Under the pieces are notes generated by a model. The model searched no databases. It saw only the letters and a list, made by a program, of their open reading frames with translations, and was not told where the DNA came from. Position numbers and translations under genes: made by a program. A stretch of DNA of 64,000 nucleotides from a virus (taxonomy: Duplodnaviria; Caudoviricetes): IMG/VR virus record IMGVR_UViG_2728369355_000004; one strand, given 5' to 3'. This document shows, one piece after another, positions 22,939-59,587 of the stretch (position 1 is its first letter; each line of letters begins with the position of its first letter).

Positions 22939-22967
22939 CATTAAGTTAACGGGCAGAAATGTTCAAT
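22939..22967 (+). repeat. cassette-boundary motif upstream of tyrosinase
   Basis: CATTAAGTTAACGGGCAGA, 18/19 identical to the reverse complement of 59569-59587. Confidence 0.7.
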
Positions 22968-23169
22968 CATTTACGTTTTACATGTACCCGGATAAATGAA
23001 CAAGTTGTCAGACAGCAAGAACACAGGCGAAATGTACCCGAGTAGAACGCGGATACATACCTATTAATTTGGAAGTGTTAAAGTTTTTTCTAACATGCAT
23101 AAATTATCCAACCATGTCGCATAACAATCTCATACATTATTTTATTACAAAGAAGGGGGTTAATCTTCA

Positions 23170-24324
23170 ATGCATACAAGAAAAGAGATAAGATCGCTAT
23201 CACCGGAGGAACTCCTTGCGTTTCGAAGGGCTATGATTGAATTGCAGCGGCGTGATGGAACGAATAGTTACATCGATCTTGCAGGATACCATTGGATACC
23301 ACGAGAATTTTGTCCGCATGGGGAATCTATTTTCCTTCCGTGGCATAGGGTCTATATCCGCTTATTTGAACAAGCACTACAATCAATCGACCCTTCTGTT
23401 TCTTTGCCTTTTTGGGATTGGACCTCAAGCGAATCGTTAGCTCAAGGCTTGGCTCCTGCACATGGCGATGAAATGTTCGATGACGGCGGAGTACCCCGAC
23501 TGAATCCTCTCTTCTCCGGTCCAATAGAGGATCGGAGTCGTCAGACTCGCCGAAATCCTCCGCAAGCTCTCAGACGTTTAAGGGAACACGCCAGCGCAGC
23601 AATTGATGCAATGAGTGATTCAAATGATTTTATGAGTTTTACTGTTGCAATCGAGGGGCCACATGGGGACATACACGGTTGGGTTGGTGGGCCCGGTGGA
23701 GATATGTCAACAATTCTACGTTCTGCATACGACCCAATATTCTGGTCTCACCATGCTAACGTTGATCGACAGTGGGCTATTTGGCAAAAGTGTAACCCAC
23801 AGGGAAATCCTCCACCTGAGATAATGTCATTATCATTGGAATCCCGCGGTTTTCCGGGGTGGTCTGTGGCTGATACGCTTGATCTCTCGTCACCACGACT
23901 TGATTATACGTATGAAGGACTAGATACAGTTACTTGTCCTATACGGACTTTACATGAATTATTTGGTAAACCTCGAATTAAAGTGGAAATTAAAAATATA
24001 GTTATTACCAGGGGTTCCTTTATTGTTGATATCTACCTCCGTAGGAAGAACTCTGCTCTGGAGGAGGGCGTTTTCAGTGGATCGTTTAGCATTTTCGGGC
24101 TCCCAAGCAACGAAGGGGGACATTTTCCCGGCCATCATCATCACCATACGCCCGTAAACAGGCTTATTGATGTTACGGAAGCTTTTTACGGCATGGAACT
24201 TGGCGAGGATCAATTGCATTATGTTGATATACAACTTCAGGCAGTTAATATGGATGGTGAATCCGTAGATCCTGCTGCTCTCCCGATTGAAGGGGTAGAA
24301 CTAACAATCCCCGATAGGTCATGA
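23170..24324 (+). CDS. tyrosinase (type-3 copper), moron on the opposite strand
   Basis: CuA H...CPHG..FLPWHR and CuB EGPHGDIH...AYDPIFWSHHANVDR. Confidence 0.92.
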   Translation: MHTRKEIRSLSPEELLAFRRAMIELQRRDGTNSYIDLAGYHWIPREFCPHGESIFLPWHRVYIRLFEQALQSIDPSVSLPFWDWTSSESLAQGLAPAHGDEMFDDGGVPRLNPLFSGPIEDRSRQTRRNPPQALRRLREHASAAIDAMSDSNDFMSFTVAIEGPHGDIHGWVGGPGGDMSTILRSAYDPIFWSHHANVDRQWAIWQKCNPQGNPPPEIMSLSLESRGFPGWSVADTLDLSSPRLDYTYEGLDTVTCPIRTLHELFGKPRIKVEIKNIVITRGSFIVDIYLRRKNSALEEGVFSGSFSIFGLPSNEGGHFPGHHHHHTPVNRLIDVTEAFYGMELGEDQLHYVDIQLQAVNMDGESVDPAALPIEGVELTIPDRS

Positions 24325-24427
24325 TAAGGGTTTAAATCGTTGGTATTTGAATACTAGCGTGCCTTGAAAAGAGAACTTTGTATTAGTAAGTGTTATTGCT
24401 AAGATTTCTAGTGGGTAATCGACGATA

Positions 24428-24489
24428 TAGTTCAATAGAACCTCGGCAGTCTAGGATTTTATTTTCTCGGCCTTGGCTGCCGTTGTTTC
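24428..24489 (+). repeat. cassette-boundary TAGTTCAAT plus hairpin downstream of tyrosinase
   Basis: Aligns with the reverse complement of 58308-58367, with compensatory stem changes. Confidence 0.7.
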
Positions 24490-25084
24490 TATTATTGAGT
24501 GCAGTCTAATACTATTTCACCTTGAAATTCACGATTTGCTAGAGTGCAACTTGACCGATACGGATTTTCCGTATTGCTAATAATCCACCATACGCAAATT
24601 GAGGATGGTTCAATATCTAACCGTCTTGATGTTCAAGATTAACTCGGCTGAAAATTCAGCCCAGTTCAACTCAATTTTGAGGCGATTAAAAGGACTCCTA
24701 AAATTTCAGGAGTCCTGATTTACTGACCCCAAAAATGGGGTGAGTGTGTTTACCTTAATTCGATAAGACCGTCTAGTGTAGTAATAAATTCCTTGAAGGA
24801 TACATCATTTAGTTCAGCAAGTTTAACTCAAGATATTGATCAGGTGAAGAATTTAATATAAAGTCCATTATCTCTTCTTCTATTATGTTTGCCTCCAGAA
24901 AAATGGGGCATACACCTCTAACAGAATCTAGGCAACAAGATAAATAATTTTGACTATAAATTATACTATTGTATAATTGTCTATGATTAGGTTAGAGGGT
25001 ATAACCCTTGAATAAGGTCACCTTACTCCGGCCAAGAAGACAGGTGACAACTTTGTTGGGAGTCGCTTTGTTAAGCGGCTCTTT

Positions 25085-25729
25085 TTAATTTGCATGTTTA
25101 TTTCTCGGGTGATCACCTAGATACTTATCATAGATAGTTCTAGAGACTGCAATGTCTAACTTGAACTTGTCCGACATTGTCATCAGGTTAACAGCATCTT
25201 CTAAAACAGCTTGTCTTTCTACAAGCATCTCGGGTGTCATTTGGTCTTTCTTGATCATCTTGGGGTGACCATGCATAGAAGAAATTGCTTTGTTTGCAAT
25301 GGTATTAGCTTTAATAAAGTCAACTCTTACTGGTTGTCTTAATCCACTGCAAAGTTTACCCATGGCTTCTTTTTGATGATCTTTATCTAACATACGAAAG
25401 ATTTGGAAACCTTCAAGTCCAGTAGACTGGCGAAGCTGCTTGATTATGTCGAAAACCCAATCTTGGAAAGCCTCAGCTTCTTTACGGCGTGATCTCATAA
25501 TCATTCGGTAGACTGCTTTTTCAGAGATAATCGCAACTTCTTGCTTTCCCCCGAGGGTGTCGGTTAAAGCTACATCCTTTTGAGTATCAGGCAAGCGACC
25601 TACCGCATCACGATTGTTTCTTATGCCGAGTACCCTAGTGACATCCACGGCTACTGCCCACCAATCACCTAGTGTCTTCTCTACAAAACGAATTTCGTGT
25701 CCCATCCAATTCTCAATACGAATATTCAT
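25085..25729 (-). CDS. Bro-N domain protein (antirepressor-like)
   Basis: WWAVAVDV..VLG...TLGGKQE..IISE..VY...SRRKEAEAFQDWV. Confidence 0.85.
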   Translation of the reverse strand: MNIRIENWMGHEIRFVEKTLGDWWAVAVDVTRVLGIRNNRDAVGRLPDTQKDVALTDTLGGKQEVAIISEKAVYRMIMRSRRKEAEAFQDWVFDIIKQLRQSTGLEGFQIFRMLDKDHQKEAMGKLCSGLRQPVRVDFIKANTIANKAISSMHGHPKMIKKDQMTPEMLVERQAVLEDAVNLMTMSDKFKLDIAVSRTIYDKYLGDHPRNKHAN

Positions 25730-25927
25730 ATTATTCCTCCTTTTTGGTGATACTTAAAATAGTGTACTAGGCTATAGTTAAAGTTAGATTTTTTATTTTT
25801 ACCGATAGGTTTAGATAACCTTTTATTATAATTATATCCGTTTATCTAAGATGCCTACATTGTTTTTCTTATTTCTTTCCTTCTTGTCTTTTAATCCCGA
25901 TATGGATTAGTATTAGACTTATAAGGA

Positions 25928-26134
25928 TTAAACTGCTTCGGAAAATAGATCATCTAAAGAGTTCACTTTAAAGATAACTTTCAGCTTCTTTGCCATGCCA
26001 ACATTAATGTTCTCTGGATTTCTCTCTAGACGCCCATAGTACGCTTGAGATATCCCTAATTCCTTGGCAACATCTTCTTGAGACATGATGTTGGTTAATC
26101 TGTAGTATGCTAACTTGTTAATTGGCTTTCTCAT
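25928..26134 (-). CDS. Cro-like XRE regulator
   Basis: MSQEDVAKELGISQAYYGRLERN HTH. Confidence 0.85.
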   Translation of the reverse strand: MRKPINKLAYYRLTNIMSQEDVAKELGISQAYYGRLERNPENINVGMAKKLKVIFKVNSLDDLFSEAV

Positions 26135-26217
26135 TTTCCCACCCCTTTAGTACTTAATGGTCTAAATAAATTCCATTGCAGTCTTAATATATGCTTGTTA
26201 TAGTCTAATGTCAATAC

Positions 26218-26799: not shown

Positions 26800-27015
26800 C
26801 TAGTTTCTTGAACTACTTAATTAATTAGTTAGATAGAATAAGAACAAAAAGGACTCCTAAAACTTAGGGAGTCCTTTTTGTTCTTATTCTATTTGAGCGA
26901 TTTCTAAACAACTACTTTTCTAGTTCAGCTTTTTGCTTTTCATTTCATTCCACGAACTCATGTGGAGTGCGACTTTTAATTTGAGCAATACTGTCTTATT
27001 CCTTTTTTTCATGAG

Positions 27016-29827: not shown

Positions 29828-29835
29828 AAGTCACC

Positions 29836-32289: not shown

Positions 32290-32844
32290 CTACTCAATTT
32301 GATATTCATTTGCAATTCGAAAATTGCGTATGTCGTTTTCACCAATGTTGGTCAGGACGATAACAGGGCTGGCCCTTTCGTCTCCAACTGAAGTAACTGA
32401 AACAGTCTGCGGCGATTGTGTGATGGTGACCTCTTCAATGTTCTCGTCACTCTCGGGAAACGGATGTTCACCCATTTTGATTGGTATAGTTAACTCTCCG
32501 TCCCAAAGTATTTTTTCGATATCCAATGTTCCGGCATAGCGTCCAATATATCGCCTTCCTGGTAAGTCCGAAAACGTGAATACGATATCCCCTTTTTTGG
32601 CATTAAAAAGAGCCGCCACTTGGGCGACTCTCCTATGGTAATCAAGGGTTGTATCATCTGCCATAACGACACATTCAAGGTTAATTGTCCTCGCTCCGTA
32701 AGTACTGCCAAAGTCTAATTCCCCATCCCTCTCGGCTATTTCAAGAGAATGGTCCTTTGTTGGCGGCAGCACAGGTATATTGTGAGTTTTAAGCCCTAAT
32801 CCAATGGATTTAAAGGACTTTCCATCTGCCGTAGCGTCAATCAT
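32290..32844 (-). CDS. distal tail protein (Dit)
   Basis: Immediately after the TMP; FGSTYGARTINL, FSDLPGRRYIGRYAG. Confidence 0.8.
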   Translation of the reverse strand: MIDATADGKSFKSIGLGLKTHNIPVLPPTKDHSLEIAERDGELDFGSTYGARTINLECVVMADDTTLDYHRRVAQVAALFNAKKGDIVFTFSDLPGRRYIGRYAGTLDIEKILWDGELTIPIKMGEHPFPESDENIEEVTITQSPQTVSVTSVGDERASPVIVLTNIGENDIRNFRIANEYQIE

Positions 32845-35800
32845 TAAGACTTACCTCCCCTTGTCTGCAACCTCCGTACAAAGTTGTCCCGTTCGCTCCA
32901 GAACACCTTTGCTGCGGATTCGTCTTCAATATAAGTATCGCCTGATTTTATTACGAACTGGTTGCTGATTTGCTGCGGATTTGAACCGCCCGAAGCCATT
33001 GGCATAGAAAAGTCTGGCATGGAGAAATTAAGTGCTGGCATTTTGAAATTGATAATTTTGAACAAGTTGCTCTGCTGTTGATCATTCAGGTACATTTCTC
33101 CTGCGCGAGCAATGACCGGAACTTCCGCGCCCCTATCCCCCCGAACGACACCGCCTGAATGGAATTTTTGAAGCTTTCCTGTGTCCTTTTTGATACCATA
33201 CTTATTCCGCAGAGTGGCATTTTCCTCGTGCAGTTTGGCCTTCTCAGCAGCGCCTGCCGAATACCATTTATCAATATTAGAATTGTATCGCGCCAAATCG
33301 CTGTCCTTTTCTGATATTGAGGAACCTGTATCCAAGGATGCAGACAATGAGGTGGCATTGATTTCAGCCATTTTCATTTGATAGTCTAAGATGAATTGAT
33401 CCAACTGACGCAATATTTCTGCGTTTTTCTCAGATTCCTTTGAAATCTGAGTATTTTTCAAATCTTCAGCTTTAGATTCAACTCCATCTGAATACTCATC
33501 ATATTTCTCGGATAGCTGATCATAATGTTGTTTGGCTGCTTCAATCTGGTCATTGTAGTCCTTTTCCCGTTCAGTCTTCTCGTCTTGGAGCTTCTTCTTC
33601 TGATCCTCCAATCCACGCTTAGCAAGCGTCCGGTTATGTTCCCGCTGCAAATCTTCAATATCTTTTTCAGTCTGTTTCCGTTCAGCAATACCTTCGGGAC
33701 CGACAGCAGATTGTAGCAGGGCAAGGCGTGCTTGTTTTTCCGCCATTGCACGTTCATAATCCTCGTCTTCGTTAGCTGTCTGCATCTTAGCAAGCAAGTC
33801 GTCTATGGCCTTAATTTTAGCATCCTGAGCCTCAATAAAAGCATCCCGTTCCGCCTCAATACGCTTTACTTCCTCATCCCGAGTCTTTTCAAGCCCTTCC
33901 TTTTCCTTCTTGGCAGCTTCAGAAGCAGCCTTCTTCTGATCCTCCAAAAGTTGCTTCTTTAAGTCATGGACCTGTACATCAATTTCTATCCGTTGTTCTG
34001 ATCCTTCTTTATAAAGAGCCTGCATTTTTGTCCATAAATTGAGTTGATCGGAAACAGATATGGCTTCCATACTCTTCTGGTAATTGATTCTTTTTTGGAA
34101 GTCTGACAAAAACTCATCTTCCAGAGCTTTACGTTTCTCGTAAATCTTCTGCTGCAACTCAAAACTCTGTTCGGCGGTACGTTCCTTTGCCTTACTCATA
34201 CGCATATAAGCGTCATATTCCATTTTGAGGATAGCAATTTGGGTTTGCCCCGCCATTTCCATTTTGGAAGTTTCTTTATCAATCCATTTTTCCGAGTTTT
34301 GGTATCGAAGCTCGTTATACTTCACGGACAGATCATAAATTTGCTTTTGGATTTCACGCCTATTTGCTGGTAGCAAGTAAGATTTAGATTGTTCCTTCTT
34401 GTAAAAATCCAAGCTGGTTTTTACCATCTCAATTTCTTGTTTGTTGGCCTGCCGCATACGCTCGGTTCTTCGCTCAAGATTCTCCACGTCTTCCTGAAAT
34501 CTTGAATCATTCAGTTTCTGAACATCGCGGCTCCATTGCTTCATTGCATCCTTATCTTCCAAAAGGTACTGCTTATGTCGTTGAGCCAGTTGTTTGTACC
34601 AAGCTATTTTCTGGTCTATAGACCATTCATTACGTTCTGCGATGTATTTGAAGTTGTCCATATCATCGCTGTAGGAATCCTTACGAGCATCCGCAGCTTC
34701 TTTAGCAGCTTTTTCAGCCGATTTTTCTGCATCACTCTTTCCTTTTCTTCCTTTTTTCTCTTTGCTTGATGAATCGCTAACTCCAAATTTAGGGTCTTTG
34801 TATAGCTTCGATAAAGCGTTAATCCGAGTATCAAAGGATTTTGCTTGATTTTCATATTCAGTGTATATTTCATCAAGCTTTTTTTTGTTATCCAGTTTTT
34901 TCTTATCAACATCAAGTTGATTCTTAAAAGGAGCGTTTAAAACTGATCTAATGCCAGTCATGCTATTAAGTTCAGTTTGTCTTTTCGCAACCTCCAACGA
35001 ACTCTGAGCCATTACACCATTGAGAGCAGCTTTTAATTGAGCTAAATTTCTAATAGCTTCTGCTTCAATGCTATAAGCTTTTAAACGTTCATCAGTAGAC
35101 ACTTTTGTGTTGAATGCTGAAGCTTTCTCGGATTTCAAATCGTCGATTGCTTTCTGAATTTTTGCTTTTCGGAGAACTTCCACAGCGTCTTTTTCAAATT
35201 TCCATCCATCACTTGTCTTATATATTTCTGCTGCCAGTTGAGGATATTTTAGTATTAGGTCCGTGGCAGCAGCGGCGTTGAGAGACTGTCCTTTTGAAAG
35301 GTCGCTCAAGAGATTATTCATCTCAGATACAGCAGTGCCATTTCCTTGAATTTGCTCCCTTAAATCTGCTAATGCTTCCGCTTGAGCTTTGGCACTTTCA
35401 GCTGCTGTACCCGACTTACCTGCGAATTGATCAACCGCATCAACTGCAACTTGGCCAAGCTGCACTGCGACTTCAGCGGCAGAGGCGGAAAGTTTATGGT
35501 TCTCCTTCTCTAAGCCATTTACTTCGTCTTGGAGAAGCTGAACGGAGTTAGAAGCTTCGTCCAAACTCTTTCCGGTAAAAACGTTTTTAAAGAACTCTCC
35601 CATTTGTGAAGCTAAGCTGTCTTTAACTTTAAGGAGTTTCTCTTTTGTTTGCTCCAGCTCTTCGGTATTCTTTTTCAGCTGATTGTTAATCTCGCTTTGT
35701 TGATCAGTAAGCATATTCTTTCGTGCTTCATTTTGCTTTGCAATCAGTGTATTCAAAGCATCAACCTGTATTTGTACAGCCTTTTCACTAAAGTTTGCGG

Positions 35801-38249: not shown

Positions 38250-38271
38250 TTTGCTCACCTCTTCATAGGGT

Positions 38272-38289
38272 TCAGGAAACTTTTCCTGC
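38272..38289. promoter_or_regulatory. 18-bp palindrome, copy 2 (before tape measure)
   Basis: TCAGGAAACTTTTCCTGC, 23 bp upstream of the TMP GTG. Confidence 0.65.
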
Positions 38290-38339
38290 CCTGAATACAG
38301 AAAAAGAGGCATCCTGCATGATTGCGGATGCCTCTTAAT

Positions 38340-38624
38340 TTACTTGGTGAAGAAACCAAGATCAGATAATGTCTTAACCTTCTTCGGCTTTTTGTTTTCA
38401 ACATTGCCACCGTGAAGAATGATTTCAAATTCCCGGTTTCTGTTCTTAGCCTTCATGAGCGCTCTAATTTTTGGAATAGTCATATTAGGCCACTCCGAAT
38501 CAGAAATACCATTGCTCACACATAAAGCCCAAAGTTCTAACCAGTCCGTTTCATGCTCATCCTCGACAGGGTTAGACTCCTCCTGTTCTGACTCTTCATC
38601 TGGAGGAAACGACTCAGAATAGAA
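38340..38624 (-). CDS. tail chaperone downstream frame (G-T-like frameshift extension)
   Basis: Open +1 frame FYSESFPPDEE...WALCVSNGISDSEW...LGFFTK* with no start codon at its 5' end. Confidence 0.75.
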   Translation of the reverse strand, partial: FYSESFPPDEESEQEESNPVEDEHETDWLELWALCVSNGISDSEWPNMTIPKIRALMKAKNRNREFEIILHGGNVENKKPKKVKTLSDLGFFTK

Positions 38625-47114: not shown

Positions 47115-49541
47115 TTATTCTACAATTTCCAGATCCAAGTATTGTCCATCCCAAACATCAAGTTTATACTTTCCGGGCGGCAACTCGCCTGTAGAAATAA
47201 TAACTGGTTTATTTACTTCATCATCCGTAACAATTATCTTTTTACCCCAGTTTTCTGCGACCAAATCGTCGTAGTTACCTTGGCCTCCCCAAACAAATGT
47301 ATTTAGCAGATACACTTCTGAAACATCTGAAAGAGAGAATGTAATATCGCCTCCTTTTTTAACCTTTAATATATCCCCGATAGGTTGAATCATTGTAATT
47401 CTGACCGTTCTTCTATTTCCCCAGGTCTGAAATTCTTTATTGAATTCACCATTGGATGTAACCACAGCGTCTGTGACTAAACGGAAATTATAAACCAACC
47501 GATCCTCCAAATGTTTAGGCAATATAAAGACTTTATTGTCCTCAACTCTTACAGTCCCATTTTCCTTTGTGAAAGGCGTAAAAGGACTGTCACCAACAGA
47601 CCACTGAACGATATCTTCTGTTGTCTTCCCGTCCGCAAGCTGTAATAAGCGATTATAATCAAAAGAGAATTGATCAAGTCTATCCTTTCTTTCAGGATAT
47701 TGTACAAATATCGGTGACTGATCCAGAGGCTCGTTCTCATCCAAAACCGTTATTTCCTTGCTATGAAAGTTACTATTTTTGTCATAAACCGTCAGATCAA
47801 ACTCATAGTTTTTGGGATAATTCCAATGATTAATATCATATGTCGCGAAACTGACGGTTTTATTAGCCGGAACCTCCATTTTCAAAACCTCGCCGCTTTC
47901 GACACCCAACTCAAGGGATTGGAGATTACGGTAATCTATGAATTCACTTGAAAAGTAAGCAGTGCCATCATAAGAGCTAGTAAAATAAACGGACTCTCCG
48001 ACTGTTACTATTTTTTTAGGAACAGAAATGTTAGCGCCCCCATTATGCTCTGGTGCTTGAGGTGTATCATCTTTCTTGTCGTCACTTTTTTTATGATCAT
48101 CTTTTTTGGAATTATCGAATTCATTAGAGTTACTAGAAGAACCCCCACCGCCACCTGATGTTGTTGGCCCCTGTAATCCCAAAGTTTTTGACGAATCGCC
48201 TATTGTGACTTTAACATCACTACTTACCTTGTCGCCATTTGTCAGAGATTTAGGTTTTGTTTGAAAAGAAACATTTTCAGCATTAACTACGGCTTTATCA
48301 ACAGAACCTAATCCTATTACTTTGGCAGCAGCATTAAGAACTAACGAGAGAATAGAAGACTCTTTTGCTGTATCTATGGTTGTACCCGTAGCGTTATCAG
48401 CTACGTTTAATGCATCAATCTGTCCATTTGGGATATTTACATTAATAGCGAATGCTTCTACATTCACAGTGTGAAAATAACCTGTAAGGCTCACATTAGA
48501 TTTTGCGGGGAGCTCATTTGTTAGAGTAACTCGATCAACACTTGCTCCTTGTGAGACATCGAGGGCTGCGCCCGTCTTGATTTTTACTTCGCTAATGGAC
48601 GTTGCTCCTTCTGCCACCAAACGAACAGTTCCATCCACTTTGTTTACAATGATGCTAACCAGCATAGAATTGTTCAGATGAACGCTATGCTCTCCACCGC
48701 CGTAAACGTAGGTTTGACCGTGAATTTTAACATTTTTCAAGAATACGTCGCCGTTCCCGACGGCTTTCCCGATAATTAAATCACCCGCGATTTCCGTATT
48801 TTGAAGCGTTACACCCGTTGTGTTGATGATAACATTGCCTGCCTGCTTGTCGAGTCCAGTCGAAGGCCCATATGTTCCTGATTCTCCATACCAAGCACCA
48901 AAATGATTAACAGCACGATCAAGAATCGTAACCGCCTCAGCACGAGTCAACGATTTTTGTGGCTGAAATGTACCATTCTGGTAACCCTCAATAATACCGG
49001 CTGCAACTACAGCATTAACGGCCTTTTGGGACCAATTGTGCAGTGATGTGCTATCTTTAAAGGTTTTATTGGTATCAGAAGAAGAGATCTGAAGTAATTG
49101 GTTTACAGTAACAGCCGCTTCTTCTCTACTCAATACTTGCGTAGGACGAAAGCTACCATCTTCAAATCCTTTCATATATCCAGCATAAACTGCATCAGTA
49201 ACGGTTGAAGCAAACCAATCATCTTTATTCACATCGGTAAAAGATGCTGCTTGTCCTGGCTGAATTTGAAATGCACGATTTAGTAAAGCAGCCCATTCAC
49301 TTCTCGTAATCGGACGATTCGGTTCAAAACGAGCGTTTTCTACACCTGAAACCACACCTCGGTGGCTCCATTTTGTAACGTTATCCGTTGCCCAATGGTT
49401 CACCATATCCCCATAAGGTTGAGATACAGTAGAACTTTCTTCCTTTGTTACTTGGTGTGAACTATCGGCTGCGAATATGGGGCTAGCCCATACAGAGGTC
49501 GCTAAAATTCCAGCCGTGAAAACATTAACCCACTTCTTCAT
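47115..49541 (-). CDS. S-layer homology (3x SLH) surface protein, moron
   Basis: Signal peptide; three SLH repeats (FEPNRPITRSE, FRPTQVLSREE, FQPQKSLTRAE). Confidence 0.9.
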   Translation of the reverse strand: MKKWVNVFTAGILATSVWASPIFAADSSHQVTKEESSTVSQPYGDMVNHWATDNVTKWSHRGVVSGVENARFEPNRPITRSEWAALLNRAFQIQPGQAASFTDVNKDDWFASTVTDAVYAGYMKGFEDGSFRPTQVLSREEAAVTVNQLLQISSSDTNKTFKDSTSLHNWSQKAVNAVVAAGIIEGYQNGTFQPQKSLTRAEAVTILDRAVNHFGAWYGESGTYGPSTGLDKQAGNVIINTTGVTLQNTEIAGDLIIGKAVGNGDVFLKNVKIHGQTYVYGGGEHSVHLNNSMLVSIIVNKVDGTVRLVAEGATSISEVKIKTGAALDVSQGASVDRVTLTNELPAKSNVSLTGYFHTVNVEAFAINVNIPNGQIDALNVADNATGTTIDTAKESSILSLVLNAAAKVIGLGSVDKAVVNAENVSFQTKPKSLTNGDKVSSDVKVTIGDSSKTLGLQGPTTSGGGGGSSSNSNEFDNSKKDDHKKSDDKKDDTPQAPEHNGGANISVPKKIVTVGESVYFTSSYDGTAYFSSEFIDYRNLQSLELGVESGEVLKMEVPANKTVSFATYDINHWNYPKNYEFDLTVYDKNSNFHSKEITVLDENEPLDQSPIFVQYPERKDRLDQFSFDYNRLLQLADGKTTEDIVQWSVGDSPFTPFTKENGTVRVEDNKVFILPKHLEDRLVYNFRLVTDAVVTSNGEFNKEFQTWGNRRTVRITMIQPIGDILKVKKGGDITFSLSDVSEVYLLNTFVWGGQGNYDDLVAENWGKKIIVTDDEVNKPVIISTGELPPGKYKLDVWDGQYLDLEIVE

Positions 49542-50112: not shown

Positions 50113-50703
50113 TTATCCTGCTTTCCTGGTTACAGAATTCTTTTGTTTAACCTGCATAATCATTTCAATAAGCTGCTCTCGGTTAATCAAGCGAACGTTA
50201 TTGGATCTTGCTAGTCTGTATGCTTGCTCAGTGTAATCGCTATTTGTCACGACCCATGCTGAAGATGCACGGTAATGTGCTACCGCACCGTAAACCTCCT
50301 GAACCGCTTTAAGCCCAACATTTTTACTGTACCGTTTCGCCTGAACTACGATACGCTGACCGTTTTTTGTAAGAACCAGATCGGCACCGTAATCTCCAGA
50401 AGCTTGTGTAACCTCAGCTTTGTATCCTTGAGCTCTGAACAGATGTCCTAAATATTTTTCGAATTGATGACCATCCATTTTATCAATTTCAGCAATTCCA
50501 GAATTACGTAGCCTTGTTGCAGCAGCCATTTGACGATAAAAGATAAATGCTATGACCATTGCTACTGCTACAAAAGATGCAAAAACAGAGGCACCGATTG
50601 AACCCGTAACTGAGTAGATAAAGAAAAACGGGGCTATTAGCGCAATCCCTGCAATAGCCTCTTCAATAGAATTTTTCTGCTTTCTTCTCCGTCTTCTAGC
50701 CAT
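50113..50703 (-). CDS. membrane-anchored Mrr-like restriction endonuclease domain protein
   Basis: Two TM, then FEKYL...GDYGADLV...VVQAKRY...AWVVTNS. Confidence 0.85.
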   Translation of the reverse strand: MARRRRRKQKNSIEEAIAGIALIAPFFFIYSVTGSIGASVFASFVAVAMVIAFIFYRQMAAATRLRNSGIAEIDKMDGHQFEKYLGHLFRAQGYKAEVTQASGDYGADLVLTKNGQRIVVQAKRYSKNVGLKAVQEVYGAVAHYRASSAWVVTNSDYTEQAYRLARSNNVRLINREQLIEMIMQVKQKNSVTRKAG

Positions 50704-52854: not shown

Positions 52855-54315
52855 TTATCTTTTTACTGCCACACTACCTATTGAAGGAAGCATAATATGT
52901 GTATCTGGTTCCATTAAATATTCTCCGAATGTCAAAACAAAAGCGTCAGCTCTGTCTGGAGACTTAAGCCCACGCCTTTTCATATCTTTCTTACTTTCAA
53001 GCAGTATTTTCCCTTTACTGGTCATGTTCCATTTACGTGCTGTAAGTTGGGTTATAAGAACATCATCATCAGGCAATTGCAGAACGCTCACATCTCCATT
53101 TATAAAATTGCTCATATTCTGTTCTAATTGTTCCTTTATGGATGCCCACATTTCAGTAACCAGGTTCCCATAGTGCTCATCTAAAGAAGAAGAGCCATTG
53201 TTAATTGGAATGATCTCATATGGTAGCCCTTCTTCAGCTACGATTTCATTTAGTCGATCCGTTACTCCTCCACCTACACCGCTATCATCTACTCTTATTC
53301 TGATTCGATTTAAATATGGATGAGCTTTATGTAGCTCTTTAGCCAGGCTGATTACCCAACCAGCAGTAACCATTGTGTCTTTCTTGAAATGATGGTGTTC
53401 TCCTACAACTCTTGGCCCTATACCAGCAAACATTGAGGTTTCATCATCACCAAATCGTGCAACGTCAACGCCTATGGTTAGCGTATCTCCGCTGGGGTCC
53501 AGCTTCACTTCTTTAGCTGCAAATTCAGCCACTTCCAACGAAATAAATGTATCCGATTCTCCACGGGGGAATTCACCTTCAACCCGGACTCTCCATACAT
53601 CACTGCCTTCACCATACTTACGCTTGAGCATAGCGATATTATCCTTGCTTGTTCTTGGACTGTCCAAGCATGAAACCTTGCGTGTCTTATAATCCGCTCT
53701 GTCCTTATTGTGCGAATCATAAAAAACACCCGACGTTTTTGTCGGGTTGCCGCACATCAATATTTTATTGAACTCACCCGACAGAGTACCTAAAATGGCT
53801 TCCATGATTGGATCAGCAACACCCGATGCCTCATCCACAATAAATAGCATGTAGTCCTCGTGAAAGCCTTGCATATTCTCAGGCTTGGTAGCTGTACGAG
53901 CTGTAGCGAACCAGCGTTCCTCGTAGTTCTTCATGTAGATTTTGGTTTTAGTCCATTTAAGGATTCTTTTCAGCACTGGGCTTTTGGACTGCCATTTATT
54001 TATCTCAGCCCATAACACGTCATGTAGCTGCTGTCTTGTAGGAGCTGTACAAATCACTTTTGGATAAGGGAAGCAGGACAGAAACCAAAGGGCTGTTGCA
54101 GCTTCCAGCCCAGTTTTTCCTACGCCTTGACCTGAACGTACTGAAACGCGCGGATTATTAGCTAAATCCATTAGAGTGCTTGCCTGCCAATCATCAGGAT
54201 AGAACTTAAGCATCTCTTGGCAGAACAATGTGGGATTCTTGCGATACTCAGGAATCCGTTTCTTGAATGCTTGAAGCCTCCGTTTCGTCTCCGGTGAATC
54301 CTTCTGTTTCATCAC
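52855..54315 (-). CDS. terL: terminase large subunit
   Basis: Walker A SGQGVGKT, Walker B FIVDEASG, GNP, IGVDVARFGDD, SPDRADA. Confidence 0.95.
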   Translation of the reverse strand: MMKQKDSPETKRRLQAFKKRIPEYRKNPTLFCQEMLKFYPDDWQASTLMDLANNPRVSVRSGQGVGKTGLEAATALWFLSCFPYPKVICTAPTRQQLHDVLWAEINKWQSKSPVLKRILKWTKTKIYMKNYEERWFATARTATKPENMQGFHEDYMLFIVDEASGVADPIMEAILGTLSGEFNKILMCGNPTKTSGVFYDSHNKDRADYKTRKVSCLDSPRTSKDNIAMLKRKYGEGSDVWRVRVEGEFPRGESDTFISLEVAEFAAKEVKLDPSGDTLTIGVDVARFGDDETSMFAGIGPRVVGEHHHFKKDTMVTAGWVISLAKELHKAHPYLNRIRIRVDDSGVGGGVTDRLNEIVAEEGLPYEIIPINNGSSSLDEHYGNLVTEMWASIKEQLEQNMSNFINGDVSVLQLPDDDVLITQLTARKWNMTSKGKILLESKKDMKRRGLKSPDRADAFVLTFGEYLMEPDTHIMLPSIGSVAVKR

Positions 54316-55537
54316 CTACCACCGCCTCTACCCAATCGTCAATTAGATCATCCTCTGTATTGCCTTCTCCCGTAACCTTGGCCCTTTCGAGTTCAAGTTT
54401 CTCACGCTGAATCTTAAGTTTTTCGTCCTCAAGCATCCGTTTATGTTTGTCTGGGAGCAGATCCATGTATTTAGTCAGTACGTCCAAAGCCTTAGTTTTA
54501 TCGTGTAGTTTAACACTTACACCATCCTTGCCCTGCTTCACCTCTGAAACCAGAGTCCCATCAATTTCATCACTATTTTTGAAAGCTACAAAATTATATC
54601 TGTACTTCTTAGTGTCTCCAGTGTCTGGATCAAAGACTGGCTCACCTTCCAGTCCTAGAATATCTTCTTCCTTTTGACCAAACTCTACGTAATCAGTAAT
54701 GTCTGCAAAAGCGATCTTCATATATTCCATCAGCACACGTTGTGCATTCAACCCCACCTCGTGGATCATGGATTCCTTATGCTGTCGAATAATGTTTTGA
54801 ATTTCAACTTTCTTCAACAGAGCGAAACCAATTTGATAGGCGGTTTTCTTACTGTATCCCGCCGCAATCGCTGACCTGGTAGCATTGAAGTCTCGAAGGT
54901 ATTCATAAGTGAATATCCTTTGCTTAGGCGTTAATCCGTCCTCATCGGGAATTTCCGGTTCAGGTTCTTCAACAGTCGCTGGAACGCTCTGTACTTTTTT
55001 GGAACGTTCCATATTACCGGAGCGTTCCGGTATTTTTTTCGGAACGTTCCGTATTTCTGGAGCAGCGTCTTTTAGCTCTTTAGAGAGCGCATCAACTGTT
55101 AGCAGGGTAGCATATACCTCTCTTGGCTTATCACCTTGATATGTACCAACGAATTTACGCCGCTCCATTTCATCAATCAGTCGGGCCGCGCTGCTATAAC
55201 CTATCCTCATTCTTCTCTGCAATAAAGAAACCGAGGCTTGTTTGGCCTCGGCTATAATTTGGACAGCTTTTAGAAAAAGCTCATCCGAATATGATGTTGG
55301 TTCTTCATCTTTATTTGGAGGTTCCTTTTTTTGATTAGTTTCATTTTCATTAGAACGTTCCGTATGTTTTCCTTCCCCAACAATCAAACTCTCCCACTTA
55401 TCTTTAGCCTTCCATCCTCTTACCGTACCTTCAGATACACTAAGTTGAGAGGCTATTTCTGTGAGACGTATTTTGCCGGAACTGGCTTTGTATAAATCAA
55501 ATGCTTCGTCCCGTTTCGGATCTCTCTTTCGTCCCAT
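54248..55537 (-). CDS. terS: terminase small subunit with inserted FtsK gamma domain
   Basis: N-terminal HTH (IASQLSVSEGTVRGWKAKDKW); FtsK-gamma SVSLLQRRMRIGYSSAARLIDEME; Terminase_2 LTPKQRIF.YEYL.DFNAT.SAIAAGYS. Confidence 0.9.
   Translation of the reverse strand: MGRKRDPKRDEAFDLYKASSGKIRLTEIASQLSVSEGTVRGWKAKDKWESLIVGEGKHTERSNENETNQKKEPPNKDEEPTSYSDELFLKAVQIIAEAKQASVSLLQRRMRIGYSSAARLIDEMERRKFVGTYQGDKPREVYATLLTVDALSKELKDAAPEIRNVPKKIPERSGNMERSKKVQSVPATVEEPEPEIPDEDGLTPKQRIFTYEYLRDFNATRSAIAAGYSKKTAYQIGFALLKKVEIQNIIRQHKESMIHEVGLNAQRVLMEYMKIAFADITDYVEFGQKEEDILGLEGEPVFDPDTGDTKKYRYNFVAFKNSDEIDGTLVSEVKQGKDGVSVKLHDKTKALDVLTKYMDLLPDKHKRMLEDEKLKIQREKLELERAKVTGEGNTEDDLIDDWVEAVVGDETEGFTGDETEASSIQETDS
54981..55053. 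repeat. four GGAACGTTCC-like repeats at ~20-bp period inside terS (candidate pac/TerS sites)
   Basis: Copies at 54981, 55001, 55019 and 55041; fifth at 55353. Confidence 0.6.
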
Positions 55538-55679: not shown

Positions 55680-55780
55680 GTATTTAGTGTTTTTTAATTT
55701 ATAAAAGTGATAGAATTTACTTGGGAATTATTTCAAAGTAGTGGTGAAAAACCCACAGAGATTCATCTAAATAAAAGGCG

Positions 55781-57406
55781 GTGGCTAAATTGATAAACAC
55801 ATCTAATTACGTGAAAACCTATACCACTTTAAGTGACTTAACAGGCGGGGAAAAAAATAGTAAGGAAGAAATTATTAAAAAAATTAGTAAAGTTCCACTT
55901 GGCGGCGTATTTATAATACTGTCACAAATGAATTCTTATGGGGGAGAAAACCTTGAAATAAGAAAGATATTTCTCGATTATCTTAAAAGCATAGGAAGCA
56001 AAGATCTATCTCAAGTTTTAGGTGATAGTTCATTATATTCAGAGCAAGGACTTTTAACATTATGGAAATGGTTTTTCGTTTATGGAAATTACAACTCAAT
56101 CAACGAAAGCGTAGATCCAATTATTGGAGTAAACCAGATCATTCATCTTTGTATTGCTGTTTCTGATTACCTGTGTGATGAGATATCGGAGGAGAAAGCA
56201 AATAATTATTTTTTCTCAAATTCTGTGTTTAACAATAAGTCAAATCTAGGTTCCGATTTAGCGAGGTCTTCTCTAATTTTTGGAGAAATAGCCCAAAATG
56301 AAAATAATTTTGTATCTAAGGACTTTATAGATATTAACAAGATGTTTTCTGATAAATATGGTTACTCAATACAGGATTATCTAGCTATAATTTATGGTCT
56401 TATTGCTGGTTTTCTAAATAAAGGAACTAGCAATGCCGCTATAAGATCTGATTGGAATAAATCTATTAATTATTTTGATAAAACTCATAATCCAGATTTA
56501 GGAAAGAAAATAATTGATGAAATTTCTACTTCATTTCTAGACGCAAAAATATGGGCTCAAACATCCATAAACAATCCATGGGATTATACTTTGTTTCGTC
56601 AGAAACCATTACTAAAATTAGAAAACGGAAATTTTTATCCTATAAATCTATCGCTGTTATTTGATAAAGTTTTAAGTGATTTATATTTTAAAATCAGAGA
56701 AACCTCCCCTAAAAACAGTACACAAATAATAAGTTTTTTCGGAAAATGTTTCGAAAAATACGTGGAGATAATAACCAAAGAAACACTTGGGAGCCGAAAG
56801 AACAATATTCCATATGAGTTTATTCCTGAATTTAGTTATGGAAATAAAAGATCTAATAAATCCCCTGATGCACTTATAAGAGTTAAAGACACTTTGTTAG
56901 CAGTAGAAGCAAAGGTTTATCGTTTAAAGATGGACTCACTTTTTGGAGTTAAACCTGCTATTGAGTCGGATACAAAGAGGTTTGCTATAGACCCTATAAA
57001 TCAAATGCAAAACCGATTAAGCGAATTGAAGACACGATCTCATCAAATTATGAATGGTATTTCCAAAATATATCTAATATCACTTACATTCGGGTACTAT
57101 CCTACGCTTAAACCTTTTGAAGAGATGATTGATCAGATGATTGATGCGTCTGATTTACCGATCAAGGGAATTATTCACATGGATATAGAAGAGTATGAAT
57201 TCTTTTTAGAGTTAATTTCTAGAAAAGCCTCGTCACCTGCATCTCATTATCTTGAGAACAAAAAACAACTTGCTCCTTATACTTCTTTTAAAAATTTCTT
57301 ATTTTCTAGCTCTTTGTATCCTAAAAGACCTCAATACATTAAAGATAAGATACTGGAACACAGTAATAATATGAGGGAGACATTGTTTCAAACTGCACTG
57401 CGCTAA
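55781..57406 (+). CDS. AT-rich moron with C-terminal PD-(D/E)xK nuclease domain
   Basis: FGKCFEKYV...SPDALI...LLAVEAK; opposite strand to the phage genes. Confidence 0.7.
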   Translation: MAKLINTSNYVKTYTTLSDLTGGEKNSKEEIIKKISKVPLGGVFIILSQMNSYGGENLEIRKIFLDYLKSIGSKDLSQVLGDSSLYSEQGLLTLWKWFFVYGNYNSINESVDPIIGVNQIIHLCIAVSDYLCDEISEEKANNYFFSNSVFNNKSNLGSDLARSSLIFGEIAQNENNFVSKDFIDINKMFSDKYGYSIQDYLAIIYGLIAGFLNKGTSNAAIRSDWNKSINYFDKTHNPDLGKKIIDEISTSFLDAKIWAQTSINNPWDYTLFRQKPLLKLENGNFYPINLSLLFDKVLSDLYFKIRETSPKNSTQIISFFGKCFEKYVEIITKETLGSRKNNIPYEFIPEFSYGNKRSNKSPDALIRVKDTLLAVEAKVYRLKMDSLFGVKPAIESDTKRFAIDPINQMQNRLSELKTRSHQIMNGISKIYLISLTFGYYPTLKPFEEMIDQMIDASDLPIKGIIHMDIEEYEFFLELISRKASSPASHYLENKKQLAPYTSFKNFLFSSSLYPKRPQYIKDKILEHSNNMRETLFQTALR

Positions 57407-57429
57407 TATTACTTTGAAGGCAAATAACA

Positions 57430-57910
57430 AAAGCCGATGGTTCTCAGGTTCTAACACGCTCATCGAGTGTGTAACCGATCAATCCATCAGCTGCTTTTTG
57501 ATGTGCTTATAACTTTGAGTACAGGCAGCATGTTATTAAGCGGTAATTTGTAACATGCTGCTACCGCTAATCCGCCATGCCTGCAATGGACCTTCAGTGG
57601 ACATCCTTCTTGATCCAGGTTTATATTACCCTCTGAGTCCTGTCTCCGATTTAGTTTTAAATACGCCCTAACCCTCCGTCATGCGCTTGCCACTGCCGCC
57701 CCCATATACATGCGGTATGGTTCCCAACGGGAATTATTTCACAGCGATTACCGTCAATCGCTATAGTCCGCATTACGTGCGGAACAATCTGCCGCCCTTA
57801 TTGATGGGGTGTTATTACCCTCTTTACGGCTGTCTCCAATTAGTTGTAGTTAGTTTCGATGTGGGCGAGGCGTGTATCGGGCCTTGCGTCTATTCCGCCA
57901 CCACATTTAA
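57430..57910 (-). ncRNA. putative large structured RNA or RNA cluster
   Basis: Dense stems, an H-type pseudoknot, internal direct repeats and a 5' mini-tRNA-like element; no credible CDS. Confidence 0.5.
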
Positions 57911-57920
57911 ATCTTAACGA

Positions 57921-58175
57921 TTACAGAAGTTGACCGGCTAGTGCTTTAAGGCCACTTGGTATAGCAATTTGTTTGCCATTATCCTCATTTCCGTTTACAT
58001 AAGCTGTGTCTTTGTCTGCATAATAGATTACACCTTCGCCGCCGATAACCGGAAAACCGCTTTCGTCGTAATCCAGATTTGTACCCACATACTTGCCATG
58101 CTTAACTGCTTCATCTACCAATGGATGGAGATGGAGAATTTTTTCCTTGTCCAAGTAAGCGTAACTATGTGCCAT
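57921..58175 (-). CDS. small phage protein, first gene of the late operon; paralog of 50906
   Basis: MAHSYAYLDKEKILHLH...FPVIG...IP; RBS AGGAGG. Confidence 0.75.
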   Translation of the reverse strand: MAHSYAYLDKEKILHLHPLVDEAVKHGKYVGTNLDYDESGFPVIGGEGVIYYADKDTAYVNGNEDNGKQIAIPSGLKALAGQLL

Positions 58176-58217
58176 GTTTATTGCCTCCTAAAATAGTTTT
58201 AATTTGTTCCTGAATAA

Positions 58218-58249
58218 AGTGTAAATCCTTTCTACTCCGTACCTACTAC
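58218..58249 (-). promoter_or_regulatory. late promoter (GTAGTA-N20-TACACT)
   Basis: Extra GTAG repeats nearby; similar AAAGGA..TAnnCTTTATTCA context to the portal promoter. Confidence 0.65.
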
Positions 58250-58307
58250 GGATTTGCTAGTTCCTACTATCAGCAGAAAATAAAGTGGTAGACTGAGCCT
58301 AGAAATT

Positions 58308-58387
58308 GAAAACAGCGACAACCAAGGACGAAAAAAAGTCCTAGACTGTCGCTGTTCCATTGAACTAACGTTTCCCGTTAGCGTAAT
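58308..58387 (-). repeat. cassette-boundary site downstream of the ATPase
   Basis: GCTAACGGGAAACGTTAGTTCAAT plus CGACAG..TTGTCG hairpin; homologous to 24428-24489. Confidence 0.7.
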
Positions 58388-58459
58388 CAGCGATAAATAA
58401 ATAAGCTCAAATTTTTTTAATATACGCGGCGGATATATTTTTGTTCAAATCTTGTTTCT

Positions 58460-59389
58460 CTACTTATTGTGTAGAAACAGCCCTTTATGCTTATTGAAAA
58501 AATCAAAGTACACTTTTGGGTTTTCTAATTCCCACCATTGCTTTATGTCGACTGGATTAGCTTCTAAATCATATATTTTTGTAAACTCCATCGCCAGTAA
58601 AAACGGTGAGTGCGTTGCAATGATAAATTGACATCCGCAATAGTGAGCCATTTCCTCTATCATTTTGACAAGTTCAAGCTGCATTTTAGGAGATAGACTG
58701 TTCTCCGGTTCATCCAAACAATATAATGTGTCATTTTTAAATTTGGAATTAAAATAACTCAGGGCTGTCTCCCCATTGCTGTTCAGTTTAATTTCGGTGC
58801 CGGCGACTCTGCGAATAAACTCCCTGCGTGAAATTGATTTTTTTCTTGAGAGCACCTGTAACCTCAATGCTTCATAATCATCCATGCTATTCATTTTCAC
58901 TGTATTGCCGAATTTCAGATTTCCCCATTCCGATCTTATATCTTCTGTGCTATCCACGATTTCATCGTTGTTTGTGCGGACTGTAAGCATATAATCAAAA
59001 ATATCGTCACTTGTGATTATCCTGCTTCCATTTGGAATTCGATGTTTAAATCCCTCGTCGTCAAGTCCAAGTTCAAATTTACAATGTTCAACATATGAAC
59101 TGAACAATTCACTTGAATTGAATGGTGCAATACGATTTAGTTCCAATTTATTCGCTATGAGATTTAGAAGTGTGCTTTTCCCCGAGCCGTTTCCTCCATA
59201 TAAAATTGTGATTTTTGAAAAGCTCAATTCGGAAAACCGATTTTTTGAGAAAATGCCACATGGGTAAGTTTCGTCGACATATCCAAACCTACCGCCATTG
59301 TATGCCATTCTTTGTTCTATCAATGAGGATTCTTCATCTATAGGCAATATGAATTTATCTAAATACATTTTCATTCCTCCGTAATTCAT
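58460..59389 (-). CDS. ABC/AAA_21-type ATPase moron
   Basis: Walker A GGNGSGKST, SNGE signature, Walker B YCLDEPE, IATHSP. Confidence 0.85.
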   Translation of the reverse strand: MNYGGMKMYLDKFILPIDEESSLIEQRMAYNGGRFGYVDETYPCGIFSKNRFSELSFSKITILYGGNGSGKSTLLNLIANKLELNRIAPFNSSELFSSYVEHCKFELGLDDEGFKHRIPNGSRIITSDDIFDYMLTVRTNNDEIVDSTEDIRSEWGNLKFGNTVKMNSMDDYEALRLQVLSRKKSISRREFIRRVAGTEIKLNSNGETALSYFNSKFKNDTLYCLDEPENSLSPKMQLELVKMIEEMAHYCGCQFIIATHSPFLLAMEFTKIYDLEANPVDIKQWWELENPKVYFDFFNKHKGLFLHNK

Positions 59390-59568
59390 CTAACCTGCTC
59401 TTATGTTTTCTCTTCCGTTTCAATTTGAAGTTTTCAACTAGTAAACCTCCCTCAATAATGTGGGAGCTTCCTCTTTTAAAAGCATTGATTGCTCAATCCC
59501 CTTCCATTCATAGTCGATGTAGGTATTATAGCAGACGAAATCTACTTATCTTATCTTGGTTGTGCTAA

Positions 59569-59587
59569 TCTGCCCGTTAGCTTAATG
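59569..59587 (-). repeat. cassette-boundary motif upstream of the ATPase
   Basis: CATTAAGCTAACGGGCAGA. Confidence 0.7.

Follow-up and report, generated by a model that had tools for sequence, protein, structure and literature searches.

Accessory genes of a prophage and of chromosomal arrays share boundary sites between which cassettes have been exchanged

The window analysed here is a stretch of 64,000 nucleotides of Caudoviricetes DNA (IMG/VR record IMGVR_UViG_2728369355_000004), which corresponds to G000:C1:228060-292059 in a complete 5.76-Mb genome, most likely of the genus Paenibacillus to judge from the named records that hold the junction sequence described below. A siphovirus-type prophage lies on its minus strand, in the order small terminase (54248-55537), capsid, tape measure (32844-38312), tail, and finally holin, GH25 lysin and holin (20180-21835). 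Two further genes concern us, one for a tyrosinase, which sits between the lysis genes with an antirepressor gene and the tail side, and one for an ATPase, upstream of the terminase region. From the letters of the window alone it had been predicted that these unrelated genes, together with a gene for a CPCC protein, are bracketed by the same short sites and are single-gene cassettes, mobilised by a site-specific recombinase and captured by the phage. The coordinates of all these features are collected in Table 1; open reading frames (ORFs) are, throughout, plain ORF finder output and not gene-caller predictions.

The flanks of the tyrosinase and ATPase genes are indeed shared. Upstream, the window holds exactly two copies of the 19-mer CATTAAGYTAACGGGCAGA (22939-22957 on the plus strand and 59569-59587 on the minus strand, 18 of 19 positions identical), where 0.02 matches are expected, and each copy is found about 200 nt upstream of its own gene. 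Downstream, the similarity is longer than had been claimed and covers about 115 nt, comprising a site that we call A, a hairpin and a second block, CAGTCTAnnAC. The inverted pair formed by 24428-24464 and 58331-58367 is 84% complementary, and a profile of this right module matches both places (24411-24525, E = 5.7e-27; 58388-58271, E = 2.7e-29). Compensatory changes in the stem, which had also been proposed, could be confirmed with 14 genomic copies, at least one of them being altered on both sides in 8 of the 15 predicted pairs, and the fullest site, GCTAAC-GGGAAAC-GTTAG, is present at 58382-58365 on the minus strand. As for the CPCC gene, the letters quoted for its flanks are there, but its membership in the site family did not hold: the flanks gave nothing above noise with the left-module, right-module or junction profiles (best profile match at 11655-11642, E = 37), and the arm-spacer-arm pattern also failed. 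The octamer GCTAACGG, with four occurrences in the window versus 0.9 expected, gives a weak hint.

Table 1. Features of the window discussed in the text (window coordinates).
Feature	Position	Strand	Remarks
CPCC gene (11659-11928) with the flanks quoted for it	11642-11977	-	PF14206; not a demonstrable member of the site family
Tyrosinase unit, outer left module, ending in R20inv (22909-22928)	22807-22928	+	Common to related prophages and genome 383535-383677
Tyrosinase unit, site A', CATTAAG-TTAAC-GGGCAG-aaatgTTCAAT, right arm degenerate	22939-22968	+	Left-module profile match 22897-22998, E = 6e-16
Tyrosinase cargo, 384 aa	23170-24324	+	PF00264, E = 3.5e-37
Tyrosinase unit, site A, left half degenerate (CTAGTGGGTAATCGACGATA-TAGTTCAAT)	24408-24436	+	Homology to right modules of other phages starts at ..ATAG/TTCAAT
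Tyrosinase unit, right-module hairpin (24444-24482) and direct 20-mer CAGTCTAATAC.. (24502-24521)	24444-24521	+	
ATPase unit, outer left module, R20inv (59617-59598) and partial unit upstream	59598-59644	-	59644 is the first base missing in 'empty' phages
ATPase unit, site A', CATTAAG-CTAAC-GGGCAG-ATTAGCACAAC	59558-59587	-	Right arm moves with cargo
ATPase cargo, 309 aa, ABC/AAA_21-type (AAA_21/AAA_15)	58460-59389	-	Resembles PtuA/AriA-type defence ATPases
ATPase unit, site A, GATTACG-CTAAC-GGGAAAC-GTTAG-TTCAAT	58359-58388	-	Left arm moves with cargo; homology to other copies stops at 58359-58364
ATPase unit, right module: hairpin (58356-58311), direct 20-mer (58295-58276), tail	58256-58356	-	Fold z = -5.06; 58256 is the last base missing in 'empty' phages
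Copies of a second hairpin repeat family	1137-1226, 2806-2895, 14173-14262, 17200-17243		Window self-comparison

Comparison of all the copies in the genome showed that the short sites quoted originally are pieces of two larger modules. In the right module, site A (CTAAC-GGGAAAC-GwTAG-TTCAAT) is followed by a long hairpin, with CAGTCTAGGACTTTATTTTC as its 5' arm and loop, and then by a direct repeat, CAGTCTAATACTTTATTTTC, of a 20-mer contained in that hairpin. The left module consists of one to three tandem inverted 20-mers (GAAAATAAAGTGTTAGACTG), a gap of 10-17 nt and a second site, A' (yATTAAG-CTAAC-GGGCAG-rATAGTTaCAAT). Both sites repeat, in direct orientation, a common core, CTAACGGG, and have inverted arms (..CTAAC / rTTAG..) around unlike spacers, GGGCAG (6 nt) in A' and GGGAAAC (7 nt) in A, while the 20-mers form inverted repeats outside both sites; an R20 20-mer match lies at genome 250968-250987 on the minus strand. 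The outer left segment of the tyrosinase unit, which follows the lysis genes in related prophages, is part of a stretch (window 22813-22956) that is 87% identical over 145 nt to its chromosomal counterpart at 383535-383677. The loose pattern CTAAC-N6-7-[GC][AT]TAG was not enriched genome-wide (45 occurrences versus 142 in the reversed control), so that only the specific cores are meaningful. Both hairpins of the window have loops of 8-15 nt and broken T-runs and were not called terminators by a simple scan, a consensus scan of the left modules returned no sigma-70 promoter, and readings by eye for sigma factors were unconvincing. At the gathering score Rfam gave no match in the window, and eight array loci yielded rRNA and tRNA only.

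The modules are dispersed over this genome, in which the profiles located right modules at 15 places (E < 1e-5) and left modules at 12 (E <= 1.3e-4). Right modules lie at most 160 nt after a same-strand ORF in 12 of the 15 cases, and the next ORF is convergent in 12 of 15; the neighbours of module copies are chromosomal genes of an ordinary or accessory kind, among them glpX, lacY, the gerA operon and genes for MerR, patatin, FMN reductase, MaoC and TetR. Several left-right pairs enclose one to three genes (for example 4630043-4631834 and 3398387-3394987), and canonical junctions, in which A is followed by a hairpin and A', occur in this genome too (for example 3972518-3972616 and 5576903-5576993). 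Beyond this genome, a covariance model of the right module found matches in 17 of 24 other genomes of the genus and in 4 of 16 from other families of the order, and of 93 genomes of the genus 86 contain A' with at most one mismatch, the counts running from 0 to 51 sites per genome versus 0-2 in the reversed control. The exact two-site junction pattern was retrieved from 116 stretches of named species genomes, mostly Paenibacillus; among the 80 of these 116 records that were listed, nearly all are Paenibacillus, and Cohnella, 'Candidatus Pristimantibacillus', 'Bacillus sp.' and single Priestia and Neobacillus titles also appear, as record labels only.

Arrays of the site-gene-site kind, which the original prediction had anticipated, were found in relatives, where long co-oriented series of single- or few-gene units exist and the sites are clustered and co-oriented (G015, G022, G066, G070 and G020); the window itself holds two solitary units only. 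From four genomes, 26 junctions and 60 intervals were collected. The junctions share a consensus of about 95 nt made up of A, a terminator-like hairpin and A' (cATTAAG-CTAAC-GGGAAAC-GATAG-CTCAATAAAAC..AAAGCAGCTGATC-loop-GATCGGCTGCTTTTGTT-CAACTAAC-GGGCAG-GTTAGTTgAAT), in which the block from CTAAC of A through GGGCAG of A' is conserved and the arms on the cargo side vary. Their hairpin is 95.8% paired, with 4 of 13 pairs altered on both sides, and TTTTGTT comes directly after it, while the arms of A and of A' are 72-75% paired; the predicted single-strand fold consists of three separate hairpins, with no stem between A and A'. The attC sites of integrons have consensus cores ..YTAAC / GTTAG.., and the site had been described as like attC in its inverted cores and far shorter. 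The likeness of the cores stands; the size does not, since the full inter-cassette site is A, hairpin and A' together.

The intervals, all of which start at A' and measure 358-3989 bp, end at A in 38 cases and at another A' in 22, and their ORFs of at least 50 aa are mostly oriented as the sites are (94 versus 26). The cargo is accessory and unrelated from cassette to cassette, with many proteins without a family beside GNAT, APH, NUDIX, DinB, Cass2/GyrI-like, MerR-TipAS, TetR, CPT-like kinase, BacA, deaminase, Imm8, Imm11 and SUKH members, and in its composition it resembles that of chromosomal integrons. At loci L093, L098, L282 and others a different conserved block, GGACAAGAACATAGTCC..GATTAGG..CTAATCG, was seen upstream of A'; it may be an alternative outer left module.

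Orientation and position in the replicon were also looked at. Over megabases A' is nearly strictly co-oriented in some genomes (forward/reverse counts of 0/18 in G085, 0/19 in G087, 15/0 in G064, 13/0 in G102 and 47/4 in G097), which could reflect gene-strand bias or a replication-linked mechanism; in this genome, with an origin derived from the skew, no replication-strand bias of the sites was present (20 co-directional versus 16 head-on). The cumulative GC skew of this genome is lowest at about 2.84 Mb and highest at about 0, which places the start of the assembly near the terminus and the window (228-292 kb) close to it. A short array (junction, A', A', right module) at locus L037 (G000:C1:3969500-3977500) lies directly downstream of a 23S-5S-tRNA cluster with 14 tRNA genes. 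An origin of the sites from a tRNA 3' end was considered and rejected, the sites at this locus being unlike tRNA ends.

When related phages were compared at the two prophage slots, absence or different cargo was found at both. For the ATPase slot the query (q) was the minus strand of window 56800-61200, window positions being 61200-q+1. In four phages (G080, G084, G060 and G086) q1556 is joined to q2946 with 22-24 nt between, so that the 1389 bp of window 59644-58256 are missing. Read letter by letter, the empty sites of G080 and G084 hold 22-23 unrelated nucleotides and no target-site duplication; the limits in G060 and G086 come from coordinates only. The outer modules are kept, with different cargo between A' and A, in G043 (two copies), G024, G081 and G089. 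Both the start and the end of the G043 cargo (about 100 and about 45 nt compared) match a chromosomal cassette of this genome, 3973090-3973560, which shows exchange between phage and chromosome.

Of 18 related loci compared for the tyrosinase slot, six lack the cassette, and the lysis-side segment (22807-22851..22916) is there followed directly by tail genes. Another six of these loci carry an A'-like site, an ORF of 498-538 aa and a right module 82-98% identical to that of the window, the homology of the right modules spanning from ..ATAG/TTCAAT of A to CAGTCTAATAC. In metagenome contigs, and in contigs only, the depth of relatives is high over the lysis genes and both modules and low over the cargo of this slot. 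A near-identical copy of the tyrosinase gene did not turn up in 92 other genomes of the genus, in which a single match at 66% was obtained, and a megablast of window 22000-26000 against the phage collection found no match. The antirepressor gene nearby (Bro-N/KilAC, window 22072-22812) is itself variably present, prophages and metagenome contigs joining approximately 22031-22063 to 22807.

An account of what moves is given by the ATPase cassette, of which copies were found in G069 (99% identity, q1570-2842), G041 (98%, q1613-2837), G056 (98%, q1612-2403, partial) and G018 (97%, q2316-2842, partial), those of G069, G041 and G018 being in chromosomal arrays. The shared sequence is limited at window 59587-59589, the first base of CATTAAG in A', and at 58359-58364, the last bases of A. 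Beyond these limits the window and the three copies that reach each end all differ, which makes four left and four right contexts; on the right, the window has a hairpin type of its own, the hairpin in G018 is that of the canonical junctions, G041 has a third one and G069 lacks any. Two arms remain constant with the cargo, ATTAGCACAAC on the right of A' and GATTACG on the left of A, whereas the core and the other arms follow the context, and the 26 junctions show the same asymmetry of their arms. The ATPase itself matches models of PtuA/AriA/AbiL-type defence ATPases in its C-terminal half (best E = 5.6e-20); its cassette holds no partner nuclease, and the gene is thus possibly a stand-alone or degenerate anti-phage gene.

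A second case is the chromosomal cassette 4630043-4631834, with ORFs of 272 and 81 aa, which is 96-98% identical in six genomes where the adjacent core gene reaches only 71-73%; it occurs with at least four different flanks, and the common sequence ends in A. Its 5' leader contains an insertion of about 280 nt (L034 2245-2524; G000:C1:4630245-4630524) that is also present in G069, the closest relative of this genome, and not in six other genomes, and that had no Rfam match. In the same locus an IS-like element of 1.3 kb with ORFs of 273 and 99 aa (L034 5117-6438; G000:C1:4633116-4634437) was noticed, with copies of 97-98% identity at 2790350 and, four of them, in G024.

The coincidence of sites with the limits of homology, on which the original prediction depended, was also seen in a wider sample. 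Homology between arrays of four species has 127 distinct endpoints, of which 28 lie at most 35 nt from A or A', compared with 2.3% at random; the list of sites allowed up to two mismatches, so that degenerate sites were missed. A simple search for indels between arrays of four species was discarded, having returned one case, a microhomology deletion away from the sites. Taken as comparisons of sequence, these results show that cassettes have been exchanged among chromosomal arrays, solitary sites and the two hot prophage slots with breakpoints in A' and A, and that two arms, the right one of A' and the left one of A, move together with the cargo, while the other arms, the hairpin and the outer 20-mers stay with the recipient.

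The explanation that we tentatively favour, at somewhat less than an even chance, is an integron-like cassette-exchange system that works by conservative site-specific recombination and whose recombinase would be encoded elsewhere in the genome. The tyrosinase and ATPase genes would be cargo of such cassettes, a family widespread in the genus. Each cassette is bounded 5' by A' and 3' by A, with A normally followed by the terminator-like hairpin, which probably also ends transcription of the cassette. The crossover would fall within the core CTAACGGG common to both sites. Recombination of A' with A would release a circle bearing an A'-type site (the left arm of A plus CAG and the right arm of A') and leave an A-type site before the hairpin, and the reverse reaction would bring a cassette in at any A. 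Through repeated insertion at a single A, runs of A' and cargo that end in A and hairpin would build up, which would explain the 22 of 60 intervals that end at another A'. Solitary right modules behind core genes could then be unoccupied docking sites, and a double exchange, A' with A' and A with A, would swap cargo inside a fixed phage platform; it is a speculation that the tandem 20-mers next to A' and A could serve as accessory binding sites of the arm type. Bounded units and their exchange are thus kept from the original prediction, its linked recombinase and its CPCC member are not, and site-specific mobilisation is what we infer. Slightly more tentative is the wider proposal that Paenibacillus and its relatives possess a native gene-capture system, a functional counterpart of the integron in a phylum that is believed to lack integrons, with hundreds of cassettes inserted, excised and swapped at two related sites of 28-30 bp (A' and A), with a recombinase of an unrecognised kind encoded away from the arrays and with temperate phages that offer docking platforms to these cassettes.

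Several points weigh against this site-specific system. All cassettes share A' and A, so that cargo homology would end there under any mechanism and breakpoints alone do not separate site-specific from short-homology recombination. The difference in length of the two spacers would confine a classical tyrosine-recombinase crossover to CTAACGGG, and the 'empty' phage sites contain their unrelated nucleotides and no lone A, which implies that the outer platform arrived by another route. Neither an excised circle nor an empty A-type scar was seen in the material, which consists of assembled contigs. The tyrosinase cassette was found nowhere else, and its sites are degenerate. With respect to the enzyme, recombinase and transposase families are represented by none of the 249 proteins (62 + 93 + 94) in or beside cassettes; the linked tyrosine recombinase that had been expected did not appear, the PF00589 genes of G070, G066 and G015 being tens of kb from the arrays; and the integron integrase model TIGR02249 gave nothing over its cut-off in the five genomes searched. 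The best IntI-like protein was a XerA-type recombinase of 371 aa (L268:1201-2316), which scores 225 bits with NF040815 (cut-off 220) and 209 bits with TIGR02249 (cut-off 265), the middle of the latter model being missing. At E <= 1e-40 this candidate is missing from G097, G083, G004 and G064, with 51, 36, 34 and 15 sites, but present intact in the site-free genomes G065 and G017 and as fragments in this genome; it was rejected as the cassette enzyme, as its presence does not track site counts and most copies are fragments.

Across the genus the XerA/IntI-like family includes many fragments and stop-containing copies (for example G000:C1:1104426-1105243) and is intact in some genomes, its behaviour being like that of an integrase from a mobile element in decay. 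Two other candidates were discarded. A Y1 transposase, as in IS200/IS605-derived palindrome-associated transposable elements (PATE), was rejected as the mobiliser, given that PF01797 (Y1, HUH) has no match in the complete genome, while control genomes match. The idea of a Xer/dif origin was dropped because the dif-like sites near the skew terminus (117234 and 162585, recognised with a dif consensus) are not related to either A or A'.

Cassettes could also be mobile without any dedicated recombinase, if junctions kept for the sake of expression acted as portable homology for RecA or for phage annealing recombinases, for instance after transformation or in encounters between phage and prophage. 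Phage Rad52-like recombinases drive mosaicism of such a kind; that a recombinase is linked to no array or cassette fits this view, as does the central hairpin, the best-kept structure of the junction, with its compensatory changes and its position right after stop codons, which would suit a terminator. The conserved blocks, of 95-150 nt, suffice for homologous recombination of a relaxed kind, any mechanism is expected to place breakpoints at shared sequence, and the phage slots resemble allelic replacement and not clean insertion. We consider this explanation, the main rival, less likely all the same, because in several exchanges just the 19-30 nt of A' or A are shared on one side and unrelated DNA lies beyond, which is short for RecA (in the ATPase contexts and for G043 versus chromosome 3973090), because the sites are laid out arm-spacer-arm as recombinase core sites are, with two fixed spacer types, and because the simple scans called neither the right-module hairpins terminators nor the left modules sigma-70 promoters. 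An improbable alternative would make the 95-nt junction itself a mobile element, palindromic and carrying a terminator in the manner of MITEs (miniature transposable elements with inverted repeats) or repetitive extragenic palindromic (REP) sequences, with recombination rearranging the genes between copies and the outer 20-mers being ends of a related element. The imperfect palindrome of the whole junction with its inverted outer arms, a copy number of 0-51 within one genus, as in expanding repeats, the solitary right modules after housekeeping genes (glpX, lacY, FMN reductase) and the inverted 20-mers that bound the window units all agree with it. What moves, however, is the gene with half-sites and not the junction, one cargo being found with different hairpins and one hairpin type behind different cargo; target-site duplications are lacking at the empty phage sites, Y1 transposases are lacking in the genome and no transposase of any kind was found in or beside the arrays, and the runs of A' and cargo without a junction are left unexplained.

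Two further explanations have less in their favour. The sites could be purely regulatory, a promoter or operator on the left and a terminator or RNA-binding hairpin on the right, so that shared flanks would reflect common regulation in a regulon; one to three tandem 20-mers about 10-17 nt from A' are reminiscent of activator sites, orientation relative to the genes is kept (94 versus 26) and a left module also precedes the gerA operon. We regard this as very improbable, since the cargo is functionally unrelated, identical cassettes occur in different genomes with their limits at the sites, breakpoints are enriched tenfold at sites, copy number varies strongly among strains and species, and neither an Rfam family nor a consensus promoter was found. 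Hardly credible is a true integron or a cluster of attC sites lacking an integron-integrase (CALIN), in which A, hairpin and A' would constitute an attC site and IntI would act on its folded bottom strand, even if the junction does have two simple sites (..TAAC / GTTAG.., spacers of 6-7 nt) around a variable palindromic centre within about 95 nt, and cassette arrays exist whose cargo includes Cass2 'integron-associated' proteins. TIGR02249 stayed below its cut-off in five genomes and the XerA-type candidate does not co-occur with the sites; the hairpin stays behind when a cassette moves, unlike attC, and the junction folds into three separate hairpins; and a survey of integrons reports Firmicutes genomes to have CALINs and no complete integrons (PMC4889954).

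The favoured cassette-exchange system can be set beside several known ones. With integrons and CALINs it shares accessory genes, mostly single and unrelated, that are arrayed in one orientation and each have behind them an imperfect palindromic site of roughly 60-140 nt with two inverted-core simple sites around a variable centre and similar core letters, as well as identical cassettes across arrays and species and cargo such as GNAT, DinB, NUDIX and Cass2. It departs from them in that no IntI was found, that breakpoints occur in both A and A' and the central hairpin stays with the recipient, and that singletons and short runs are spread over hundreds of kb with no single attI/Pc platform, prophage moron slots being used too. 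Phage morons, self-contained insertions of promoter, gene and terminator, are likewise single extra genes between phage modules (here after the lysis genes, and between those for packaging and those on the replication side), variably present and with a hairpin of their own, but the flanks in this case belong to a family that extends over the genome and the genus, and chromosomal arrays hold the same cargo. In mobile insertion cassettes and MITE-flanked units, inverted ends derived from insertion sequences (IS) surround passenger genes, MIC231 of Bacillus cereus being an example. Like them, the units described here belong to a Bacillales genome and consist of passenger genes that lack a transposase and are enclosed by terminal repeats in inverted orientation (the 20-mers); unlike them, their empty sites are free of target duplications, neither a transposase nor an IS whose ends match was found, and the limits of exchange are the inner A' and A and not the inverted 20-mers. 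In Bacteroidales, the recombinase-linked orphan immunity gene arrays known as rAID-1 have an adjacent tyrosine recombinase. They resemble the present arrays in being made of small accessory genes, some for immunity (here Imm8, Imm11 and SUKH), with conserved intergenic repeats, and differ in that no such recombinase is adjacent here. In the dif modules of Acinetobacter plasmids, genes are flanked by pdif sites and thought to be moved by XerC/XerD, according to three reports (PMC6449649, PMC13141974, PMC7399989). In those plasmids, accessory modules also lie between short arm-spacer-arm sites (A' can be read as 10/11-6-10/11) and are shuffled among replicons, and with no linked recombinase a host enzyme acting in trans is presumed. 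Here, in contrast, A and A' do not resemble the host's dif-like sites (11-6-11, with the dif consensus used), they are direct and not alternating, with unlike spacers, and they belong to Paenibacillus chromosomes and prophages instead of Rep_3 plasmids. An account of this element was not found in Rfam or in the full-text literature, subscription journals and supplements being outside that search, and the single Paenibacillus passage of a MITE survey does not deal with it (PMC11602168).

Some other features of the window deserve mention. Between the portal/capsid and terminase regions there are a gene for an 808-aa protein with three SLH domains (47115-49541) and another for a Mrr-type restriction endonuclease that also matches ZorD and type IV restriction endonuclease models (50113-50703), and both may be further morons. 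An agr-like module with AgrB and a LytTR regulator (8010-9726) and a BclA-like collagen/exosporium protein (4577-5338) adjoin the prophage end. A separate and unrelated repeat family consists of a conserved terminator-like hairpin, AAAGCTCTGCCaACCAATTAAGGTTAGCAGAGCTTTT, and about 40 nt downstream, in three to four copies of 72-92% identity (Table 1). Finally, window 3463-4391 shares collinear direct repeats of 30-219 nt, 77-91% identical, with 16934-17155 and with 38314-38871, behind the tape-measure gene, which suggests either duplication of phage modules or what is left of a second related phage.

If the favoured explanation is correct, Gram-positive spore-formers would have a cassette system without a linked integrase in a group where, according to the integron survey, complete integrons have not been found (PMC4889954). 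Chromosomal arrays and prophage morons would then form one exchangeable gene pool, providing a route by which phages acquire and trade genes that benefit the host or serve in defence, and A' and A would tag hundreds of accessory genes, many of undescribed function, in a genus of agricultural and industrial interest. The natural pair of heterospecific sites, together with its enzyme, could become a cassette-exchange tool for Bacillales. Even if homologous recombination were responsible, the conserved junction would represent an undescribed and widespread repeat family that structures genome plasticity in these bacteria.

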